Notes: generated by a model not told the origin, from the letters alone. Counted from the first letter of the stretch, positions 11,736-20,808 are shown. The stretch: 64,000 nt of DNA from an uncultured Acidobacteriota bacterium (GCA_963805975.1 CAWDVR010000002.1:480001-544000), one strand, 5' to 3'. Program-made: numbers and translations.

Positions 11736-11996
11736 ATGGCCAACCTGACCCGTTCGAAGACGCGCTGGATCCTGCTCGGCGCTCTGCTGGTCGTGATCGC
11801 GACCGTCGCCACGCTGGTACCGCAGAGTGCCGATGCGATCCAGGGAGTGTGCGCCTACTACAGCGACGCCACCTACACCACGGTGGTGGGCGCGCGCGGC
11901 ACCGGCTGCTGCGGCAGCGTGATCAACTGGGGCATCACCACCCCCTATCGCCGCTGCGAGCAGCTCTACTGTCCTGACGTGGTCTGTCCGGACTAG
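11736..11996 (+). CDS. Small secreted 6-Cys protein (DUF6289-like), 86 aa
   Basis: AAAGGAG RBS. Signal peptide ending ADA. Mature part has YYSDATYTTVVG..GCCG..WG..TPY. Confidence 0.8.
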   Translation: MANLTRSKTRWILLGALLVVIATVATLVPQSADAIQGVCAYYSDATYTTVVGARGTGCCGSVINWGITTPYRRCEQLYCPDVVCPD

Positions 11997-12056: not shown

Positions 12057-12800
12057 CTAGAAACCGATCCGCCGCATGATGAACCGCGGCAGAGAGCGGA
12101 TCACCAGCATGATCCAGCGCCAGATCGCCGGCGCGTAGACCACCGGCGTGCCGCGGTCGAGGGCCCTGAGCACCCGCCGCGCCACCCCGTCCGGCTCGCC
12201 GGCGAACGGCGGCGGCTTCAAGCCTTCCGTCATGCCGGTCCTGACGAACCCCGGCTTGACGCAGACCACCCTGAGCCCCTGGGCCCGGAACTTGTGGTCC
12301 AGCCCCTCGAGGTAGCGCGTCAGCCCGGCCTTGGCCGCGCCGTAGAGGATCACCGGCTTTCGTCCCCGCTCGCCGGCCACCGAGCTGAAGACGCAGAGGG
12401 TGCCGCCGCCCCGCGCCAGGAGCCGCCGCCGCGCCTCCTCGCAGAATTGCACGGTGCGCGCGAAGTCCACGTCCAACACGCGCGCGGCGAGCTCGGCGTC
12501 GGCCTCCAGCCGCTCCTGCGGCGCGAAGAGGCCCGCCGTCACCACTATGGTATCGAGCCCCGAGAGCGTGTCCTCCGCTGCCGCCAGAGCAGGTGCGAAG
12601 GTCTCTGGGCGCTCCAGATCGCAAAAAGCTGTGCCCACACAAACCCCGGAATGACCTGAACGTACCTCGAGATCGCGCGCCGAGGCCTCGAGATCCGCGC
12701 GGTCGCGGCCCAGAAGGAAAACCTCGTCCCCCCGTTCCGCCAGCCGACGGGCGAGCGCCCGTCCCATTCCTTTCGTGCCTCCAATAAGAGCGACTTTCAT
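12057..12800 (-). CDS. SDR, DprE2-like decaprenylphosphoryl-2-keto-pentose reductase
   Basis: GGTKGMG, FSSVAGERGRK, YGAAK, VKPGFVRTGMT, amphipathic C-terminal YAPAIWRWIMLVIR. Confidence 0.8.
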   Translation of the reverse strand: MKVALIGGTKGMGRALARRLAERGDEVFLLGRDRADLEASARDLEVRSGHSGVCVGTAFCDLERPETFAPALAAAEDTLSGLDTIVVTAGLFAPQERLEADAELAARVLDVDFARTVQFCEEARRRLLARGGGTLCVFSSVAGERGRKPVILYGAAKAGLTRYLEGLDHKFRAQGLRVVCVKPGFVRTGMTEGLKPPPFAGEPDGVARRVLRALDRGTPVVYAPAIWRWIMLVIRSLPRFIMRRIGF

Positions 12801-12887
12801 CGTTGCGATATCCCGCTATGATTCTGGCCATCCATTGTTCTACAGCCTCCAAGTCTCGACGGTCCACCGGGAAGGGAGAGCGTACCG

Positions 12888-15800
12888 ATGTCCGCCACCA
12901 CGAGCAAGAAAGCCCTCGTTTCCCCGGCCCTGCTCCTCGCGGCGGGCCTGCTGCCGGCAGGGCAGGCGCCCGGCGACGAGAGCGGTGGTGCCGTGCTGGT
13001 GGCTCCCGCCGCGCCACGCGGGCGCATGATCGCCTCCGGCGAAGCGCATGCCTGGCGCGTCGAGGCGGCCGGCAGCCCGCTCCTGGTCACCGTCGAGCAG
13101 CTCGGCATCGATCTCGTGGTCGAGGTGCGCGGGCCGGACGATCAGAGCGCGCGAACGATCGACGGCCCCACCAGCCGCTGGGGGCCGGAGGTGGTCGTGC
13201 TCACCGCCGGCATCGCGGGCACGTACCGCCTGGAGGTCCGTCCGGGAGGGCAGGACGTTCCTCCGGGCCGCTACGCCATCGCCGTCGAGCCGCTGGAGAC
13301 GGGGGACACCGCGCGCCAGGCCGCGGCCCAGGCCATGAGCCATGCCTCCGAGCTGGTCTCCAGCGCCACGCCCGCGGCATTGAGCCTGGCCGGCACCTCC
13401 TACCGCGAAGCCCTGGAGGCCGGGCAGGCCGCGGGCGAGCCGCGCTGGGAGGCCGAGGCCTGGCACGCCCTCGCCGCCGTGGACCAGATGCGCGGCGACC
13501 TGCGCTCGGCGGCGGCCGGCTACCAGGAGGCGGCCGTGCTCTGGCGGCTCCTGGGAGACGCTCGCCGCGAGGCCGCGGCGCTCAACGGCCTGGGGCGCAC
13601 TCTCCTGGACCGCGGCGAGCTGGATGCGGCCCGCCGCACCTTCACCGAGTCGGTCGGTCTCTGGCAGCGCACGGGAGAGCGCCTCGAGGAGGGCGAGGTC
13701 CGCATCAACCTCTGCCTGGTGGAGCAGACGGCCGGCGCGGCACAGGGCGCCCTCGCCTGCTACGAGGAGGCCCGCGCGCTCTTCCAGGAAACCGGCGACC
13801 CGAGCCAGGAGGCGCGGATCCTCAACAACATGGGAGGCATCCACGACGCCCTGGGCGAGCCCGACAGGGCTCTGCGCTCGTACGAGCAGGCGCTCGCCCT
13901 GCGCCGGCGGCTCGGCGACCGTCTCGGCGAGGCCCAGATCCTCAACAACCTCGGCACCGTCCACCGGGCCCTGGGCGAGTGGCCCGAGGCGCTGCGCCTC
14001 TACGCCGAGGCACGGCAGATGCTCGCCTCTCTGAGCGCCGGTGTGGAGGAGGCCAAGCTGCTGAACAACATCGGCTTCGCCTACACCAGCCTGGGAGAGC
14101 CGCAGCGGGCGCTGGTTTCGCACCAGGAGGCCCTGAGGCTGCGCCGCGAGACCGGCGACCGGCGGGGAGAGGTCGTCTCGCTCAACAACCTGGGCATCGC
14201 CTGGCGCAGCCTCGGCGAGCTGCAGACGTCCCTCGACCACCACCGGCGGGCCTTGGAGATCGCCTCGGCGCTCGGCGACCCTCGCCAGCAGGCGATCAGC
14301 CGTCTGCGTCTCGCCGAGGCCCTGCTCGATCTGGGCGAACCCGAGGCCGCCCTGCGCGAGCTCGGCACCACCTCGACCTATCTGCGCGAGGCGGGGGACC
14401 GCCGCAACGAAGGCCTGATGCTCCACCTGCGCGGCCGGGCCCTCACTCTCGCAGGCCGCCCCCGGGAAGCCTTGCCGCTGCTCGAGGAGGCATTGGAACG
14501 GCGGCGGGCGGTGAGCGACCGCGCGGGCGAGGCGGACACTCTCCATGCTCTGGGCGCCGCGGCTCGCAGACTCGGCCTGACCCGAGAGGCGCGCGCCCAC
14601 GCCGAGGCGGCGGTGTCCCGGGTCGAGGCCATGCGTTCCCGTTTCGTGAGTCCCAACCTCCGCGCCGCCTTCCTCGCGGCGCAGCGGAGCGCCTACTCAC
14701 TGCTCATCGACCTGCTGATGGACCGCCACGCCGCCGAGCCCACGGCCGGCCACGACCGGGCCGCGCTCGAGGTCAGCGAGCGGGCGCGCGCCCGCACGCT
14801 CCTCGACCGCCTGAGCGAGCGGCCCGGTTCGGCTGGCGCAGCCGCCAACTTCGGCACCGAGACCGGTCTGCTCGAGCGCCGGCGGTCGCTCCGCCGCCGG
14901 CTGAGCGCCAAGACGGACCAGCTCCTGAAGCAGGCGGGCGCCAGCGCCGAGGCGCTGGGGCGCGAGATCGAGGTCCTGCTCACCGACCTCGACGGCGTCG
15001 AGGCGGAGATCCGCGGGCAGAGCCCCGGCGCTGCCGGTGCCGGCGACCCGCGGCCGATCTCCCTGCCCGAGATCGCCGGCCTTCTCGACCCCGAAACGCT
15101 GCTCCTCGAGTATTCGCTCGGTGAGGAGCGGAGCTTCCTCTGGGCGGTGGGGGCCGGCACCTTCCGCAGCTTCGTCCTTCCTCCCCAGCGGGAGATCGAG
15201 GCGCTGGCCCGCCAGGTGTACCAGGAAGTCTCGACCGTCGAGGTAGGAGCGGGCCCTCAATCGAGCCCAGCCCAGGAGGCGCTGGCCCAGATCCTCCTCG
15301 CCCCGGTGTGGAGCGAGGCGGAGCGCGGCAAGCGGCTGGTCCTGGTGCCGGACGCGTCGCTGCACCTCGTGCCTTTCGCGGCCCTGCCGGTGCCCGTGCC
15401 AGGGCTGGCCTGGGACGCGGCAGGAGGTCCCCGCCAACCCCTCCTCGAGCGGCAGGAGGTGGTCTACCTCCCTTCTGCCTCGACCCTGGCCCTCGAGCGG
15501 CTGCGGCTCGGCCAGCGGGGCGTGGCTCCGAAGTGGGCGGCAGTCCTGGCCGATCCGGTCTTCGCAGCCGACGATCCCCGCCTGGCGGGTCCGAACCTCG
15601 CCCGCCGTCCGGCGCCGGCCGCGAGCGCCCTGGCCTCGACGGCGTTGGAGCGGGGTGCGGAGGCCGCCGGCGGACCCCCTCTCTTCGAGCGCCTGCCCGG
15701 CAGCCGCCGCGAGGCCGAAGCGATCGCCAGGCTCGCACCCACGGGCCAGGTGTGGACGGCCCTCGACGCCGCGGCCAGCCGGGACGCCGTGCTCTCCGGC

Positions 15801-16262
15801 CAGCTCCGCACGTACCGCGTGGTCCATTTCGCCACCCACGCGATTGCCGACACCCGCAACCCGGAACGATCGGGGCTGGTGCTCTCGCTCGTCGATGCCG
15901 CCGGCCATCCTCTGGAGGGCTTCCTCGGCCTGCCCGAGATCTACGAGCTGAACCTCGACGCCGACCTCGCCGTCCTCTCCGGCTGCCAGACGGCCCTCGG
16001 CCGTGAGATGCGCGGCGAGGGCCTCATGGGGCTCACCCGGGGCTTCCTCTACGCCGGCGTGCCGAGGGTCGTGGCGAGCCTGTGGCGGGTGCAGGATCGG
16101 GCCACGGCGGACCTCATGTCCCACTTCTATCGGGCGCTGTGGCGCGACGGCCTCCCCCCGGCCGCGGCCCTCCACGCCGCCCAGCGCTCCCTGCGCCGCG
16201 ATCCGCGCTATCGCGACCCCTACTCCTGGGCCGGCTTCGTGCTCCAGGGGGAGTGGCGCTGA
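12888..16262 (+). CDS. Exported TPR-repeat CHAT (caspase-like) protease with N-terminal beta domain
   Basis: Signal-like N-terminus. VTVEQLGIDLVV domain. Repeated LNNLG TPR units. CHAT motifs LVPDASLH, HFATHA, VLSGCQT, ASLWRV, PYSWAGF. Confidence 0.92.
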   Translation: MSATTSKKALVSPALLLAAGLLPAGQAPGDESGGAVLVAPAAPRGRMIASGEAHAWRVEAAGSPLLVTVEQLGIDLVVEVRGPDDQSARTIDGPTSRWGPEVVVLTAGIAGTYRLEVRPGGQDVPPGRYAIAVEPLETGDTARQAAAQAMSHASELVSSATPAALSLAGTSYREALEAGQAAGEPRWEAEAWHALAAVDQMRGDLRSAAAGYQEAAVLWRLLGDARREAAALNGLGRTLLDRGELDAARRTFTESVGLWQRTGERLEEGEVRINLCLVEQTAGAAQGALACYEEARALFQETGDPSQEARILNNMGGIHDALGEPDRALRSYEQALALRRRLGDRLGEAQILNNLGTVHRALGEWPEALRLYAEARQMLASLSAGVEEAKLLNNIGFAYTSLGEPQRALVSHQEALRLRRETGDRRGEVVSLNNLGIAWRSLGELQTSLDHHRRALEIASALGDPRQQAISRLRLAEALLDLGEPEAALRELGTTSTYLREAGDRRNEGLMLHLRGRALTLAGRPREALPLLEEALERRRAVSDRAGEADTLHALGAAARRLGLTREARAHAEAAVSRVEAMRSRFVSPNLRAAFLAAQRSAYSLLIDLLMDRHAAEPTAGHDRAALEVSERARARTLLDRLSERPGSAGAAANFGTETGLLERRRSLRRRLSAKTDQLLKQAGASAEALGREIEVLLTDLDGVEAEIRGQSPGAAGAGDPRPISLPEIAGLLDPETLLLEYSLGEERSFLWAVGAGTFRSFVLPPQREIEALARQVYQEVSTVEVGAGPQSSPAQEALAQILLAPVWSEAERGKRLVLVPDASLHLVPFAALPVPVPGLAWDAAGGPRQPLLERQEVVYLPSASTLALERLRLGQRGVAPKWAAVLADPVFAADDPRLAGPNLARRPAPAASALASTALERGAEAAGGPPLFERLPGSRREAEAIARLAPTGQVWTALDAAASRDAVLSGQLRTYRVVHFATHAIADTRNPERSGLVLSLVDAAGHPLEGFLGLPEIYELNLDADLAVLSGCQTALGREMRGEGLMGLTRGFLYAGVPRVVASLWRVQDRATADLMSHFYRALWRDGLPPAAALHAAQRSLRRDPRYRDPYSWAGFVLQGEWR

Positions 16263-16358
16263 GATTTCTCGCTCCCCGGTGAGATAGCGGCGGCCGCCGC
16301 GACAGCAGAGAGGAAACCACCTCGGCGCCGGGAGCGCCGGAAACCAAGAGGAGGAGCC

Positions 16359-16748
16359 ATGAGCCGCACTCTCATGAAAAGGACCCTGGGCTGGAAAGTC
16401 GACGAGATTCCCTCGACGATGTACGACCTGGGCCTCGCCCCGGTGCCCGTCATGCCCACCCTCAAGTTCCTGGATACCGGCAGCCACCTGAGGATCGACG
16501 ATTCCGGCGCCGGAAGCCGCTGGAACGACGTGCTCTGCGCCCCCGCTGCCGGCTCTCTAGAGAAGGAGTGGACCGGCACGCTGGAGAACCCCTCTCAGGC
16601 CTTCGTCATCACGCTGTCGACGAGCGGCTCGAAGAGCTTGGAGGTGAGCGTCGCCGCCGCTGTGACTCCGGATCCCCGCGGCGGTGGCCGCGACGACAAC
16701 TACGGCCCCCCGGCCGGCGGTTCCTGGACCGCGCAGGAAGGTAGCTGA
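16359..16748 (+). CDS. Hypothetical protein (129 aa) in the CHAT-sigma cassette
   Basis: Strong GAGGAGGAG RBS, ATG start and host-like codon usage. No family recognised. Confidence 0.75.
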   Translation: MSRTLMKRTLGWKVDEIPSTMYDLGLAPVPVMPTLKFLDTGSHLRIDDSGAGSRWNDVLCAPAAGSLEKEWTGTLENPSQAFVITLSTSGSKSLEVSVAAAVTPDPRGGGRDDNYGPPAGGSWTAQEGS

Positions 16749-16910
16749 GGCCGCCGGCGGCTTCCGGTGAGAGATCGACCGAGAAGGTGATCCATGTGCG
16801 CGGCAGTGACAGTGGCGCTCGGAGAGCGGGGTATGATGTTCCCTCTCCCGGCGAGATCTCCGGCACGCGCGGCAGAGGGCTTGCGCCCACGCCGAGACGC
16901 AGTGGGCGCC

Positions 16911-17519
16911 ATGAGCACCGATGCGGCACCCGAGCTTTCCGAGGCCGAGGTCGCGGCCGACCTCGGCCGGCGGATCGCGGCCGGCGACGCGGCGGCCGAA
17001 GGGCAGCTCGTCGAGCGCTACAGCCGCGGCCTTCTCTACCTCCTGCGGCGCCTGGGCGCTCCGCCGGAAGCCGCGGAGGATCTCCACCAGGAATCCTTCC
17101 GCATCGCCCTCGAGCGGCTGCGGACCAGCGGCCTCGACGACCCGGCGGGCCTCGGCGGTTTCCTGCGCGGTATCGCGCGCAACCTGATGGTGGCCGACCG
17201 GCGCAAGAGCGCCCGCCGCCGCACCGAGGCCGACCCCGAGCGGCTCGAGCAGGCCGCCCATCCCGCGCCGAGCCAGCTCTCCTGCGTGCTCCACGACGAG
17301 GAGGCCGCGATCGTGCGGCGGCTGATCGGCGAGCTGCCGACCGACCGCGACCGGCAGCTCCTGCTGCGCTTCTACGTTGCCGAAGAGGAAAAGGAAAGCA
17401 TCTGTGCCGACCTCGCCCTCGACAGCCTCCACTTCAACCGCGTCCTGTTCCGCGCCCGGCAGCGCTTCAAGGAGCTCCTGGAGCATTCCGCGGGACGGCA
17501 GGCGCAGTGGAGCTCGTGA
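16911..17519 (+). CDS. ECF RNA polymerase sigma factor
   Basis: Region 2 AEDLHQESF...FLRGIARN. Region 4 [15 protein letters not shown]...VLFRARQRFKE. Confidence 0.9.
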   Translation: MSTDAAPELSEAEVAADLGRRIAAGDAAAEGQLVERYSRGLLYLLRRLGAPPEAAEDLHQESFRIALERLRTSGLDDPAGLGGFLRGIARNLMVADRRKSARRRTEADPERLEQAAHPAPSQLSCVLHDEEAAIVRRLIGELPTDRDRQLLLRFYVAEEEKESICADLALDSLHFNRVLFRARQRFKELLEHSAGRQAQWSS

Positions 17520-17535
17520 GGTGAAAAGAGAGGCC

Positions 17536-18399
17536 ATGGACCACACCTACATCGAGGAGCACCAGATCGTCGAGCGCTATGCGATGGGCAAGCTCCTGGA
17601 ACCGGAGCTGGGGCCCTTCGAGGAGCATTACCTCTCCTGCCCGCGTTGCCTGGACCGGCTGGCCCTGGCGGAGGCCATGGAGCGGGGCTTCAAGCGCGCC
17701 GCCGGCGAGGACACCCAGCGGCTCGCCACCGCCCGACAGCTCGCCCTGGTGGCCTGGCTCACCCGCCTCGGCCGCTCGCGCCAGCTGGCCCTGGTGGCGA
17801 CAGCGCTCCTCGTCGCCGCGCTGCCTGCGGGCTTGGCCGTGCGCGAGGCGCGGCAACGAAACGAGGAGCTGGCGGAGGTCCGCTCGGCCCTGGTGGAGGC
17901 GCGAGCGCGATCTGCCGCGGGCTCGCGCGAGGCGGTGGCCGAGGCCGAGAGGCTGCGCGGCGAGCTCGACGCGAGCCACCTCGAGCTCGCCCGCGAGCAG
18001 GAGGCCCGTGCCCGGACGGCCGCGGAGCTGGCGGCGGCACGTTCCCCCCAGGCCAACGTCCCGATCCTGTTCCTGAGTGCCGAACGCGGCAGCGGCCCGC
18101 CCGCGGAAGGGCCCACCTACCTCCTCCGCCTGCCCGAGAGCCCGGGATGGATCGTTCTCGCCCTGGAGATCGAGCCGCCGCACCAGCCTTCCTACCGCGC
18201 CGCGCTTCGCGATCCGCGGGGGAAAGAGATCTGGCGTGGCGCGGGCCTCAGGCCGAGTGAGCTCGAGACCCTGAGCCTGAGCCTTCCCACCTCGCTCCTC
18301 GCGCCGGGCGACTATGCCCTCTCCGTGGAAGGCGTCCCCCCGGGCGGCAAGCCCGTGGCCGCCGGGCGCTTCACCTTCCGCGTGCTTCCCGCCGCCTGA
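17536..18399 (+). CDS. Zinc-binding (zf-HC2/ZAS) membrane anti-sigma factor
   Basis: EEHYLSCPRC (HxxxCxxC), one TM segment, coiled coil, then an Ig-like C-terminal domain (LAPGDYALSVEG). Confidence 0.85.
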   Translation: MDHTYIEEHQIVERYAMGKLLEPELGPFEEHYLSCPRCLDRLALAEAMERGFKRAAGEDTQRLATARQLALVAWLTRLGRSRQLALVATALLVAALPAGLAVREARQRNEELAEVRSALVEARARSAAGSREAVAEAERLRGELDASHLELAREQEARARTAAELAAARSPQANVPILFLSAERGSGPPAEGPTYLLRLPESPGWIVLALEIEPPHQPSYRAALRDPRGKEIWRGAGLRPSELETLSLSLPTSLLAPGDYALSVEGVPPGGKPVAAGRFTFRVLPAA

Positions 18400-18673: not shown

Positions 18674-20014
18674 CTATCGGCGGTCGTCCAACAGGCGCGC
18701 CGACTGTGCGCTCGCCAGGCGGTGCTGGGGGTCCCAGCGCCGCCTGGTCTCTTCGAAGCGAGGGAGGCGGTCGGCCTCCATGGCGCGGAAGTGCTCCGGG
18801 CGGGTGAAGGCGTCCTTCGCCAGATAGACCCGGCCGCCTTCCTCGATCACCCGCTCGTTCAAGGCGTCGATCAGCTCCTGCGTGTCGCCGCGCACCGGCA
18901 GGTCGGCGGCGATCGAGATGCCCGGTCGCGGGAAGGAGAGCAATCCTTCGCCTTGCGCGCCGCAGTCCTTGATCACGCAGAGGAAAGAGGCGCCGCCGCG
19001 GCGGGTGAGCTCGCCGAGCACCCTTCGTGCCGCGCCCGGCCGCTCGCCCTCGGGCAGCACGCACTGGTACTGGGTGAAGCCGCGGGGCCCGTAGATCCGG
19101 TTCCAGTGGAGCACGGCGTCGAGCGGGTAGAAGAAGGTCTCGGGATCGACGATCCGGCGCCGCAGCCGGGTGAGCTGGGAGCGGTAGTAGACCTCGTTGA
19201 AGAGACGGACGGTGGCTCGCGACAGCGCCCAGCCGGGAAACACCACCGGCACGCCGCGCCGCCGGCGTGGCTTCGGGAAGCTCTGCGGCGCCTGCCCCGG
19301 CTCCGCCCAGCGCCCGCGGATCAGAAGGCCACGCCCCAGGGCCCGGCCCTTCGCCAGGCAGTCGATCCATCCCACGGTGTAAGGCCAGTCCACGGCCGAC
19401 CGCCGCAACTCGGCGAGGAAGGCGTCGAGGTCCTTTATGCGCTCGCTCTCGCACCAGAGCCAGGGCGAGGGGACGCGTTGCAGGCGGGCTTCGACCTCCA
19501 GGATGTGGCCGGTGAGGCCCATCCCGCCCAGAGTGGCGCGGAAGAGGTCCGGCTCCTCGCTGCGCGAGCAGGTCACCACCCGGCCGTCGGCACAGAGCAT
19601 CTTGAGAGCGGTGACGTGGTTGCCGAAGGTGCCGTCCTTGTGATGGCTCTTGCCATGGACGTCGGCGGCCACCATGCCACCGAGCGTCACGTACTGGGTG
19701 CCGGGCGAGGAGGGTGGCCAGAAGCCGCGCGGCAGGAAGAGGCGGATGACCTCGGCCAGCGAGAGCCCGGCCTCGGCGCGCAGCAACCCGGTTTGGGCAT
19801 CGAAGGAGAGGACGCGGTCCGCGAGCGTCGAGCCGGCGACGTCGAGCGCACCCGGCGGCGGCAGCGAGGAATCGCCATACGAGCGGCCGAGCCCGCGGGT
19901 CAGGGGGAGGCCGCGAGCGATGCGCTCGAGATCCTCGGAGCGGATCTCGCGGCCCGGCACCGGCAAGCGGCCCCAGCCGGAGAGCGTGGGCTCGCTCGGG
20001 AGCGGGCTCGTCAC
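18674..20014 (-). CDS. FAD-binding oxidoreductase, DprE1-like
   Basis: LSGWGR, RGLGRSYGD, PGTQYVTLGGMVAADVHGKSHH, FFYPLD, WNRIYG..GFTQYQ, GRVYLAKD. GTG start overlaps the mqnA stop. Confidence 0.88.
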   Translation of the reverse strand: MTSPLPSEPTLSGWGRLPVPGREIRSEDLERIARGLPLTRGLGRSYGDSSLPPPGALDVAGSTLADRVLSFDAQTGLLRAEAGLSLAEVIRLFLPRGFWPPSSPGTQYVTLGGMVAADVHGKSHHKDGTFGNHVTALKMLCADGRVVTCSRSEEPDLFRATLGGMGLTGHILEVEARLQRVPSPWLWCESERIKDLDAFLAELRRSAVDWPYTVGWIDCLAKGRALGRGLLIRGRWAEPGQAPQSFPKPRRRRGVPVVFPGWALSRATVRLFNEVYYRSQLTRLRRRIVDPETFFYPLDAVLHWNRIYGPRGFTQYQCVLPEGERPGAARRVLGELTRRGGASFLCVIKDCGAQGEGLLSFPRPGISIAADLPVRGDTQELIDALNERVIEEGGRVYLAKDAFTRPEHFRAMEADRLPRFEETRRRWDPQHRLASAQSARLLDDRR

Positions 20015-20808
20015 GCCGCCCACAGCTCGAGCTCCCGCGGCGTCTCGATCAGGCCGTGGAGGTGAGCGCGGCGGTAGTACTCCTTGAGCGAGGCGATCTC
20101 CTCGTCGCGCAGGAAGTAGTGCAGGTTCTGCGTCAGGTAGGTCTCGACCTCGGCCGGCGGCAGCCCCAGCTCGGCGGCCGACTCGGCGACCAGCTCGGAC
20201 ATGGACGAGAGCCCGTAGAGCAGGCTGCTCTTCAGGTAGTGGGTCAGGCCGGGCAGGTCGACGTGCGGGCGCACCGCCCAGACGGCGAAGACGGCGGGCC
20301 GGCCGGTCAGAGCCCGCCACTCGGCCGCGAGGTCCAGGATCTGGTAGCGCTCGCGATCCACGGTCAGGGCCGGGTCGCCGATCACCAGCGCGGCATCGGC
20401 GTCCGCGAGCATCGCCTCGAGGTCCGGCTTCGCCGCCACGTACTCGGGCGCCAGGCCGTAGCGGTCGGCGAGCAGGATCTTCACCAGCCCCGCCGAGGTG
20501 CGGCTGTTGACGTCGAGCGCCACGCGGCGCACCTCCTGAACCGGCCGGCCGAGGACGAGGAGGACGCTCCGCACCTCGCGCTCCGCGGCCACGCAGAGGT
20601 CGGGCACCACTTCGAGGCCGGGGATTCGCTGCACCTCGATGGCCGGGATCAGACCGACGTCGAGAGTGCCCGCGGCCAGCATGTCCGCCACCTCGGCCGG
20701 CGGGCGGTAGCTCGCCTCGAAGAGGTCGGCGTGGCGGCCCTTCAAGAAGCCCCACGCCAGCGGCTTGCTGTTGAGGAAGTTGACGATCCCGACCCGAAGT
20801 CGACTCAC
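20011..20808 (-). CDS. mqnA: Chorismate dehydratase (futalosine pathway)
   Basis: VNFLNSKPL, VRSVLL, SRTSAGL, AALVIGDPAL, DLAAEW..LTG.P.VFAVW. Confidence 0.9.
   Translation of the reverse strand: MSRLRVGIVNFLNSKPLAWGFLKGRHADLFEASYRPPAEVADMLAAGTLDVGLIPAIEVQRIPGLEVVPDLCVAAEREVRSVLLVLGRPVQEVRRVALDVNSRTSAGLVKILLADRYGLAPEYVAAKPDLEAMLADADAALVIGDPALTVDRERYQILDLAAEWRALTGRPAVFAVWAVRPHVDLPGLTHYLKSSLLYGLSSMSELVAESAAELGLPPAEVETYLTQNLHYFLRDEEIASLKEYYRRAHLHGLIETPRELELWAA

Follow-up and report, generated by a model that had tools for sequence, protein, structure and literature searches.

A putative split, CRISPR-free TPR-CHAT/sigma/anti-sigma switch in uncultured Acidobacteriota

Introduction

In the DdvA/DdvS system of Myxococcus xanthus, a CHAT protease has been proposed to cut an anti-sigma factor outside the cytoplasm. 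In the published account (PMC11506125), this cut is still a hypothesis: enzyme and substrate lie on one chain, the trigger is unidentified, the CHAT activity is itself hypothetical and dyad mutants have no phenotype at rest. Cleavage of a truncated DdvA by RseP has been shown (PMC11506125). The survey of DdvA-like proteins lists fused forms in Myxococcota and in one Comamonas, Acidobacteria being unmentioned in the text, and only a subset of the DdvA-like pairs is near defence genes (PMC11506125).

Other described systems also resemble the locus analysed here. In the type III-E Csx29/Csx30/CASP-sigma system, a separate TPR-CHAT protein cuts the C-terminal region of an anti-sigma factor and frees the sigma factor (PMC10028731). 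ECF54 sigma factors are encoded beside CHAT-domain genes (CHAT/subtilase neighbours) and their proteolytic control has been proposed (PMC8999054, PMC7826278). EACC2-caspase/ECF sigma/DUF1822 loci combine a caspase-family sensor protease with an ECF sigma factor, for which protease-gated transcription is predicted (PMC8195603). Furthermore, the locus of the SAVED-CHAT/PCaspase/PCc-sigma/PCi system of Haliangium encodes a CHAT protease along with a small protein and a sigma factor (bioRxiv 2023.06.23.546230).

Here, we describe a module of an uncultured Acidobacteriota bacterium that we read, with a probability of about 0.55, as a split, CRISPR-free switch of the DdvA/DdvS type: a TPR-CHAT protease, predicted to be exported, would cut an anti-sigma factor at Arg184, and the freed sigma factor would transcribe the gene of a predicted beta-barrel protein and a few genes of mostly secreted proteins.

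Results

Organization of the module

Gene calls confirmed four + strand ORFs within positions 12888..18399 of the window (the whole stretch of DNA analysed, 64,000 nucleotides), and bore out the initial annotation of four co-oriented genes in the strand opposite to their flanks. The features are as follows.

12057-12800 and 18674-20023, - strand: flanking genes, neighbours labelled dprE1/dprE2; housekeeping flanks by the gene calls of the window
12888..16262, + strand: TPR-CHAT cysteine protease, 1124 aa (signal-like N-terminus, PPC-like region at about 40-140, TPR array, CHAT); predicted site-1 protease
15837..15986, + strand: catalytic dyad region (His984 codon 15837-15839, Cys1033 codon 15984-15986)
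16279..16306, + strand: predicted promoter of the module's own ECF sigma factor, GTGAGATA-N14-GACAGC, 80 nt 5' of the barrel start
16359..16748, + strand: gene of a predicted 129-aa beta-barrel, fast-evolving, without signal peptide; likely first target of the sigma factor
16830..16837, + strand: housekeeping-type -10 hexamer TATGAT, 5' of the sigma/anti-sigma pair
16914..17519, + strand: ECF sigma factor, about 201 aa, likely ATG at 16914 (alternative upstream starts 16794 and 16902)
17536..18399, + strand: membrane anti-sigma factor, 287 aa (zinc-binding anti-sigma domain, TM 84-102, coiled coil, Ig-like ectodomain at about 172-287)
18085..18087, + strand: Arg184 codon, invariant residue of an ectodomain loop (L-x-x-x-R-G/S); candidate P1 cleavage or docking residue

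Both flanking genes, dprE1-like and dprE2-like, are on the opposite strand; the dprE2 label is a match below the cut-off (153 of 250 bits). A link to DprE1/E2 chemistry was rejected because dprE1 was found in 1/124 and dprE2 in 0/124 fetched loci. To judge from these loci, the dprE context of the module is incidental.

Gene neighbourhoods indicate that the module persists across many uncultured Acidobacteriota as a linked gene set. In related genomes, a CHAT gene is located within 5 kb of 70 of the 76 full anti-sigma homologues, which were chosen by anti-sigma similarity and which, as kin, are not independent samples in this or the other conservation counts; four of the six remaining homologues sit at contig ends. 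A sigma frame lies beside 74/76 anti-sigmas. Among 40 more distant loci from a phylum search, 30 also have CHAT nearby and the other 10 lack it in the fetched stretch. The co-conservation of CHAT, sigma and anti-sigma is supported by these counts. Their linkage persists through four gene orders, CHAT is a separate gene in 68/68 modules, and the three genes often abut (gaps of 0-35 nt in L043, L093, L103-L110 and L112). The four-gene order of the window is kept in 39/68 modules; 14/68 lack the 129-aa gene. The genome contains 18 CHAT ORFs.

TPR-CHAT protease and sigma/anti-sigma pair

The 1124-aa protein matches Pfam CHAT (PF12770) at 797-1122 (E 1e-72) and has seven TPR_12 stretches, in agreement with the long TPR array previously noticed. 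The dyad, His984 within HFATHA and Cys1033 within LSGCQT, is intact as annotated, and homologues conserve both Cys (68/68) and His (67/68, the exception being truncated). On visual inspection, and also under a hydrophobicity rule, the N-terminus of the window protein resembles a signal peptide. A home-made rule, which takes the most favourable start of each protein, classes 42/52 homologues as having signal-like N-termini. This agrees with the signal-like N-terminus first proposed, and the protease appears to be exported. Residues 40-140 are a probable PPC-like domain, since PF04151 is matched by 7/41 CHAT homologues (best E 3e-5), the window's own copy being without match. When the CHAT domain was compared with the PDB by sequence, nothing was found at E 1; a profile search matched only separase, and weakly (E 0.014).

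The sigma gene matches Sigma70_r2 and TIGR02937 just above cut-off. A hexamer like TATGAT precedes 47/73 sigma genes versus 645/4306 background genes; a strict promoter scanner reported no promoter at the sigma/anti-sigma pair. Anti-sigma homologues carry HxxxCxxC (71/76) and a TM helix (76/76), and zf-HC2 is matched by 54/58 members, the window's own copy having no match. The model of the window protein (pLDDT 91.6) displays a long helix and an Ig-like sandwich of 115 aa that forms the ectodomain. With the TM helix at 84-102, this corresponds to the layout initially given (HxxxCxxC, TM helix, coiled coil, outer Ig-like domain). In the fold search the ectodomain matched phage tail domains and macroglobulin domains (Z 8.0-8.6), which reflects a generic Ig-like fold, and the ESM Atlas gave no named family for the ectodomain or the barrel. 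The genome also encodes RseP (TIGR00054, over cut-off, E 1e-90).

Arg184 as candidate cut site

Conservation makes Arg184 a candidate cut site on the anti-sigma ectodomain. It is invariant in 76/76 homologues and 119/119 close relatives, and in register in 31/40 loci across the phylum. Only Arg184 and Tyr15 are 76/76 columns, the zinc cysteines reaching 72/76. The close relatives, however, have further arginines whose conservation almost equals that of Arg184 (Arg282, 118/119). In the model, Arg184 is located within a lower-confidence loop that joins ectodomain strands 1 and 2. The next residue is Gly or Ser in 68/76 homologues and is followed by a variable flexible loop. The five other anti-sigma-like ectodomains of this genome also have an Arg-Gly/Ser loop. 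A point against a cut site is that most of the 10 phylum-level loci whose fetched stretch has no CHAT still have the Arg loop, as would suit a structural role or action in trans.

The separase Asp that binds the P1 Arg (helix alpha4, numbering of PMC4626109) maps, in the weak profile alignment (E 0.014), to Ala1074, a position that is Ala in 56/68 homologues. A separase-type S1 Asp was rejected on this alignment, so Arg specificity would rest on a different pocket. In clan CD, helix alpha1 and loop L5 determine P1 specificity (PMC4357240). Glu942 and Asp1070, conserved in 67/68 and 68/68 CHAT homologues respectively, could form an acidic S1 pocket.

Lack of the separase S1 Asp also suits another role for Arg184, that of a docking or inhibitory pseudosubstrate residue holding CHAT; the signal would then pass through release of the pair or another site-1 protease, and the freed CHAT would cut something else. 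There are precedents for such a role: the gingipain prodomain occupies S1 with an Arg whose pose makes it hard to cleave (PMC4357240) and securin blocks separase as a pseudosubstrate (PMC10317155). All linkage data fit docking equally well. However, a small residue and then a variable flexible loop are expected after a scissile site, and RIP of an anti-sigma requires removal of the ectodomain. We therefore consider docking unlikely and retain cleavage after Arg184 as the preferred reading.

Promoter and readable regulon

The module's ECF sigma factor likely recognises GTGAGATA-N14-GACAG upstream of the barrel gene. This motif, searched with a regex built from the same sequences on which it was counted, precedes 40/55 barrel genes versus 42/4306 genes of the genome; it was found before 1/56 CHAT genes. 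The type of motif follows the sigma tree (5 changes versus 17 for shuffles). This genome has five strong sites, all intergenic and 80-117 nt 5' of an ATG; 11/12 column-shuffled matrices gave no sites and one gave 3. The four sites other than that of the barrel precede genes of a secreted trypsin-like protease, an FG-GAP protein and two unknowns. An exact pattern scan of 41 genomes yielded 25 matches versus 19 for the control, the excess being confined to some genomes with close sigmas (4 v 0 in G000, 3 v 0 in G001 and 4 v 0 in G040, against 2 v 2 in G032 and 0 v 0 in G022).

In related loci, 9/19 non-barrel targets are exported proteins. The annotated targets are a trypsin-like protease, FG-GAP, a ricin-type lectin, an SdrD-like protein and weak lipase and sphingomyelinase matches. 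The exported targets, as well as the 10/40 distant anti-sigmas without CHAT in the fetched stretch, could point to a co-inherited secreted-protein cassette, in which CHAT would mature the exported targets, without direct contact with the sigma/anti-sigma pair, and general envelope proteases would handle the anti-sigma. However, CHAT is not behind the module promoter, and the set of targets changes freely from locus to locus, whereas the CHAT, sigma and anti-sigma genes remain linked and are often adjacent. Hence, a cassette of this kind seems very improbable.

The 129-aa barrel protein

The model of the 129-aa protein (pLDDT 71, pTM 0.66) is an eight-stranded streptavidin/lipocalin-like barrel whose last strand is W-x-A-(E/Q). 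The best match in a fold search had Z 8.6 and rmsd 3.0 over 99 aligned positions. The protein has no Pfam, NCBIfam or PADLOC family, and no sequence match in the PDB. For comparison with CATRA/CATASP, 13+13+80 barrel sequences were searched and none belonged to a Pfam family. The barrel family comprises at least 103 clusters at 50% identity. At E<0.01 a clade-1 profile detects 22/53 barrels, or 19 if the last strand is left out, but none of the clade-2 group; a common origin of all barrels is thus unproven.

The protein had been proposed as a possible substrate of CHAT. A role as substrate or sensor is not supported because none of 53 barrel proteins has a signal peptide, as against an exported-looking protease, because the gene has a predicted ECF-type promoter of its own module upstream, and because it is absent from 14/68 modules; by motif search, it is also absent from all 40 phylum-level loci. 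The 129-aa protein is thus probably an output of the switch and not a substrate of the protease. Co-export of the barrel by the twin-arginine route is not favoured either, since many CHAT N-termini, including that of the window, have no RR pair by eye.

Nevertheless, the barrel stays with the module in 13 rearranged loci, as it might if it belonged to the signalling core as a substrate, inhibitor or ligand of CHAT. Being induced by the sigma factor, it would need lysis or non-classical export to get out of the cell, where it could feed back on the protease. PCi is a precedent of a small neighbouring caspase inhibitor (bioRxiv 2023.06.23.546230). Unrelated-looking barrels share a last strand W-x-A/G-acidic, but in the model this motif is simply the last barrel strand, for which reason a C-terminal recognition tag was rejected. 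Barrel and TPR are both more diverged than sigma in two pairs, but the barrel has diverged without the TPR in L071/L078. Retention with the module would also be expected of a target gene, and the missing signal peptides and the loci without barrel weigh against a core role, which we hold to be quite unlikely.

A further possibility is that the same switch, in overlap with our preferred explanation, serves anti-phage defence, the barrel being a Cap15-like membrane-disrupting or signal-binding effector. DdvS controls CBASS and CRISPR genes (PMC11506125), and the fold search listed the barrel of Cap15 at rank 32 (Z 6.7, rmsd 3.6, 99 aligned), but tied with dozens of unrelated barrels. Cap15 has two N-terminal TM helices; the window barrel has no TM helix. 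Five barrels (L072, L080, L081, L083 and L087) have a Gly/Ala-rich hydrophobic insert before the last strand. In 8/8 pairs, dN/dS is highest for the barrel among barrel, CHAT and sigma; it remains below 1 (0.31-0.83), and positive selection on the barrel was rejected. Furthermore, PADLOC matched 0/32 targets and barrels. The defence response suggested initially is thus unsupported by the readable regulon, and the annotated targets also argue against this purpose, which appears rather unlikely.

Discussion

Proposed mechanism

In the preferred reading, cleavage of the anti-sigma at Arg184, basal sigma and anti-sigma would be produced from the housekeeping-type promoter and CHAT would be exported. 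By analogy with DdvA and Csx29, an outside signal would bind the PPC/TPR arm and align the dyad. The predicted cut after Arg184 would strip most of the Ig-like domain, and RseP would then cut the TM helix, which would release the sigma factor. The output would consist of the fast-evolving barrel, cytoplasmic or at the inner membrane, and of a variable set of exported enzymes, short peptides and repeat proteins. The simplest purpose would be a response to neighbouring microbes or to envelope attack. Since paralogous modules within a genome have different promoters, each would work as a channel of its own.

A bolder version, which we offer as a long shot, would make the separately encoded periplasmic caspase-family protease a dedicated RIP site-1 enzyme that cuts its anti-sigma after an invariant Arg, the module having multiplied into orthogonal channels with a promoter each; the hypervariable barrel, as first target, would be an alarm tag, released by lysis and read by the TPR arm of kin, that induces secreted enzymes and peptides.

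In the split form the enzyme can be separated from its candidate substrate, which is soluble, 120 aa long and has Arg184 as predicted site; a short promoter for a reporter is also at hand. Therefore, the CHAT-cleavage step is directly testable and the trigger can be screened for. If true, the proposed switch would give a function to the abundant uncharacterised TPR-CHAT genes of Acidobacteriota. The barrels, with their 103 or more clusters, make up a family that has no name as yet.

Comparison with known systems

The literature search, which covered mostly journals outside subscription, found no paper on this module. The term 'undescribed' can be kept to that extent, although this logic has already been proposed for DdvA/DdvS, where the parts are fused (PMC11506125).

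By description, ECF54 is actinobacterial and has no anti-sigma (PMC7826278), whereas the present module has one. Unlike EACC2-caspase loci, the module has a ZAS-TM-Ig anti-sigma and a signal-PPC-TPR-CHAT protease with a C-terminal CHAT, and DUF1822 had no match in 58 anti-sigmas or the four window proteins. The Haliangium system is cytoplasmic and cA3-triggered, its sigma factor is itself cut and PCi has a predicted CI-2 fold; unlike that locus, the present one has no SAVED domain or second caspase.

The type III-E Csx29 system works in the cytoplasm, where RNA triggers it by way of Cas7-11, and its cuts follow Met or Leu (as cited in PMC11506125); it is encoded with Cas7-11, a CRISPR array and Csx30/Csx31 partners. 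In contrast, our locus has no cas gene, and has a membrane ZAS anti-sigma and an exported-looking protease. The CRISPR-independence put forward from the start is upheld by the housekeeping flanks in the window and by the 96% complete genome, in which cas1 was not found. For the four module proteins, PADLOC returned TPR and one weak oxidoreductase match only.

With DdvA/DdvS, the module has in common an ECF sigma factor, a single-pass zinc anti-sigma, a TPR-CHAT with a His/Cys dyad that is extracytoplasmic (here by prediction), RseP and a proposed site-1 role of CHAT (PMC11506125). Unlike DdvA, in which the parts are fused, TPR-CHAT is here encoded separately and brings a signal-like N-terminus and a PPC-like domain of its own. 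The anti-sigma combines a coiled coil with a small Ig-like ectodomain in which one Arg is invariant. Finally, whereas the DdvS regulon includes CBASS and CRISPR genes, the readable regulon of the Acidobacteriota module holds the barrel and secreted proteins.

Conservation of the module

ORF calls and domain scans agree with the initial annotation on the four ORFs, their strand opposite to the flanking genes, the dyad motifs and the layout of the anti-sigma factor. The genes encode a TPR-CHAT protease (1124 aa), a small predicted barrel, an ECF sigma factor (~201 aa) and a membrane anti-sigma factor (287 aa). The nearest named relatives come from Thermoanaerobaculia and other Acidobacteriota MAGs, and the host presumably belongs with them. 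Features of the window discussed here are:

11736-11996: Cys-rich 86-aa protein with a signal-like start and DUF6289 (E 3e-10)
12800-12888: divergent SDR and CHAT gene starts, just 87 nt apart
16279-16306: putative promoter motif of the window's clade, GTGAGATA-N14-GACAG
16359-16748, + strand: 129-aa predicted beta-barrel whose terminal motif is W-x-A-(E/Q)

Among 84 stretches fetched around anti-sigma homologues (83 after removal of one duplicate), 74 carry a full anti-sigma (76 genes) and nine loci were left out. The genes had been expected to be co-conserved and indeed a CHAT gene lies at most 5 kb from 70 of the 76 anti-sigma genes (68 distinct CHATs); four of the other six sit at contig ends. 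Most of the 68 modules have the CHAT gene followed by sigma/anti-sigma (57), the others being convergent (five), in the reverse order (five) or divergent (one). Furthermore, a phylum-wide search gave matches in 60 of 301 genomes, and 30 of the 40 further loci taken harbor a CHAT gene within 2 kb. Although the relatives are not independent samples, linkage to CHAT over several gene orders and classes far exceeds chance.

The dprE flanks are not common to the related loci fetched. In the window, the cassette interrupts a dprE1-like/dprE2-like pair and the SDR gene therefore requires its own promoter. The window's genome (G000) encodes 18 CHAT-domain ORFs, many adjoining sigma and anti-sigma genes. 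Many of these are accompanied by a different partner (270-370 aa or small), suggesting several kinds of switch in one genome. A simple direct-repeat scan also found a tandem repeat array (G000:C4:576661-577911); cas1 is absent from this genome.

The CHAT protease and its putative cut site

The protease had been described as exported and catalytically intact. Cys1033 is kept in 68/68 CHATs and His984 in 67/68, the exception being truncated. A signal-like (basic, hydrophobic) N-terminus was found in 42 of 52 proteins (55 with an N-terminal domain, minus three giving no start codon) by a home-made rule that takes the most favorable start and is therefore biased toward positives. A probable PPC-like domain comes next. 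The sole relevant PDB profile match is separase (weak, E 0.014). In separase, P1 Arg is bound by an Asp (PMC10317155; residue numbering from PMC4626109). This Asp is absent from CHAT, its position mapping to Ala1074 in the weak profile alignment (E 0.014). Glu942 and Asp1070 are nearly invariant. Based on a presumed motif register, Glu942 would occupy the S1 Asp position of metacaspase, MALT1 and gingipain. In these proteases, this Asp is located on helix alpha1 (PMC4357240).

All 76 anti-sigma homologues have a TM helix and 71 have HxxxCxxC; the predicted structure shows a zinc domain and a long helix together with an Ig-like sandwich. Arg184, located in an ectodomain loop, is invariant in these 76 homologues and in 119/119 closer relatives, with a conserved Leu at -4 and a Gly/Ser next, then a variable loop. 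Across the phylum, 31 of 40 loci have this Arg in register, while in several of the remaining ones an Arg is displaced by a few columns. Most other-class homologues (L115-L154) lack HxxxCxxC; they still have the Arg loop and, as a rule, a neighboring CHAT gene.

On sequence grounds, Arg184 is the best candidate for the cut site, although it could instead be a docking residue. We favor, with a probability of roughly 55%, a signal-gated cut by CHAT after Arg184, after which RseP, whose gene is present elsewhere in the genome, would act and the sigma would be released. One locus (L142) has neither the Arg nor a CHAT in its vicinity, yet the Arg is retained in most CHAT-less loci. That Arg184 would be an inhibitory anchor seems unlikely. 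Given the linkage of the two genes, it is very improbable that CHAT and anti-sigma act without direct contact.

In addition, G000 carries an anti-sigma-like gene that stands alone (L113, G000:C3:863705-864457). It has the Arg loop, but no zinc domain was detected in it and neither sigma nor CHAT nearby. It may be what is left of a clade-2 module.

The small predicted barrel protein

Motif search followed by manual review places a barrel gene in 52 of the 68 modules (between the CHAT and sigma genes in 39, at another position in 13); two more have variants short of the full motif and 14 have no barrel gene. This review supersedes an automatic count of 49 that included two spurious matches. Motif search revealed none in the 40 phylum-level loci. 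The model, of moderate confidence, is eight-stranded, with designed barrels, streptavidin and lipocalins as best fold matches. None of 53 barrels has a signal-like N-terminus, and a role as ligand or inhibitor appears quite improbable.

Most of the 53 barrels are acidic and they form 24 BLAST clusters. Their identity to the window copy is 17-37% (64% within the genus) versus 71-87% for clade-1 sigmas, and their dN/dS (0.31-0.83) exceeds that of CHAT and sigma in 8/8 pairs, yet stays below 1. A profile search gave 103 clusters at 50% identity, of which 101 are shorter than 260 aa and 94 have the terminal motif; two satisfy the signal rule, though they do not look like signal peptides. The barrel belongs to no named family in Pfam, NCBIfam, PADLOC or PDB. 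Five barrels (L072, L080, L081, L083 and L087) have a hydrophobic Gly/Ala-rich insert ahead of the last strand that would anchor them to the inner membrane. Tandem two-domain forms also occur (L063, L054), and L095 has two consecutive barrel genes. The frame of a clade-2 barrel gene (L088:6848-7222) ends without the terminal motif, probably lost by frameshift.

Putative promoter and regulon

Barrel genes are preceded by a bipartite motif of fixed spacing, which is TGCGAT-N15-CCCACT in the second clade. A pattern spanning both types, derived in-sample, precedes 40 of 55 barrel genes versus 42 of 4306 genome genes. Motif type tracks the sigma tree (five changes versus a shuffled mean of 17, which measures clustering only), and both types occur among modules of single genomes. 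The motif precedes only one of 56 CHAT genes; a housekeeping-type -10 hexamer precedes 47 of 73 sigma genes versus 645 of 4306 genome genes. In L074, the motif lies directly upstream of the sigma gene. We infer that the module's own sigma reads the motif. Since no terminator was found inside the window module, read-through from the barrel promoter could give positive feedback.

A matrix built from 23 sites, including that of the window, detected five strong sites in G000, all intergenic.

Putative targets of the five strong sites in G000
1. Barrel gene of the module
2. Secreted trypsin-like protease, 369 aa
3. FG-GAP repeat protein, 438 aa, signal-like start
4. Gly-rich repeat protein, 340 aa, no family match, G000:C5:422121-423143 (L155)
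5. 136-aa protein, no family, G000:C1:442480-442890 (L156)

The Gly-rich protein may resemble tail-fibre-like beta-helix proteins. Look-alikes of the 136-aa protein, recognized by eye, are likewise preceded by this motif next to modules L074, L079 and L095. This unnamed family of 136-146 aa without signal peptide (L156, L074:9028-9459, L079:6787-7221, L095:2763-3203) is found beside a module or far away.

In the fetched loci, 23 non-barrel motif rows, minus three misfiled barrels and one sigma, leave 19 targets: nine satisfy the signal rule (a tenth narrowly fails), four are short NHNQT-repeat peptides, three are of the 136-aa type and two are other. The NHNQT-repeat peptides start with MKIK/QT and are encoded immediately after the anti-sigma, behind a module promoter (L071:8923, L073:8910-9071, L076:1932-2099, L078:8923-9045). 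The peptides resemble RiPP precursors, and those scanned gave no match in Pfam or NCBIfam. With 22 sequences scanned, NCBIfam gave only below-cut-off lipase and sphingomyelinase matches, and PADLOC matched 0/32 targets and barrels. A plain pattern scan of 41 genomes was barely above control overall (25 versus 19), with an excess in G000, G001 and G040.

The nature of these targets suggests a role in encounters with other microbes or under attack on the envelope. Defence, one of the purposes proposed initially, is doubtful since these targets do not resemble known anti-phage genes.

Comparison with known systems

The four genes appear sorted by compartment and promoter: the sensor-protease would be outside, the anti-sigma in the membrane, and the sigma and its probable first target, the barrel, inside. 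DdvA/DdvS and Csx29/Csx30 resemble the module in its proposed mode of action. The module is a member of neither because its CHAT is unfused and no link to CRISPR or CBASS was found. ECF54 is described as having no anti-sigma, whereas the module has one, and EACC2 systems rely on DUF1822, unlike the module. No publication on this module was found within the accessible literature.
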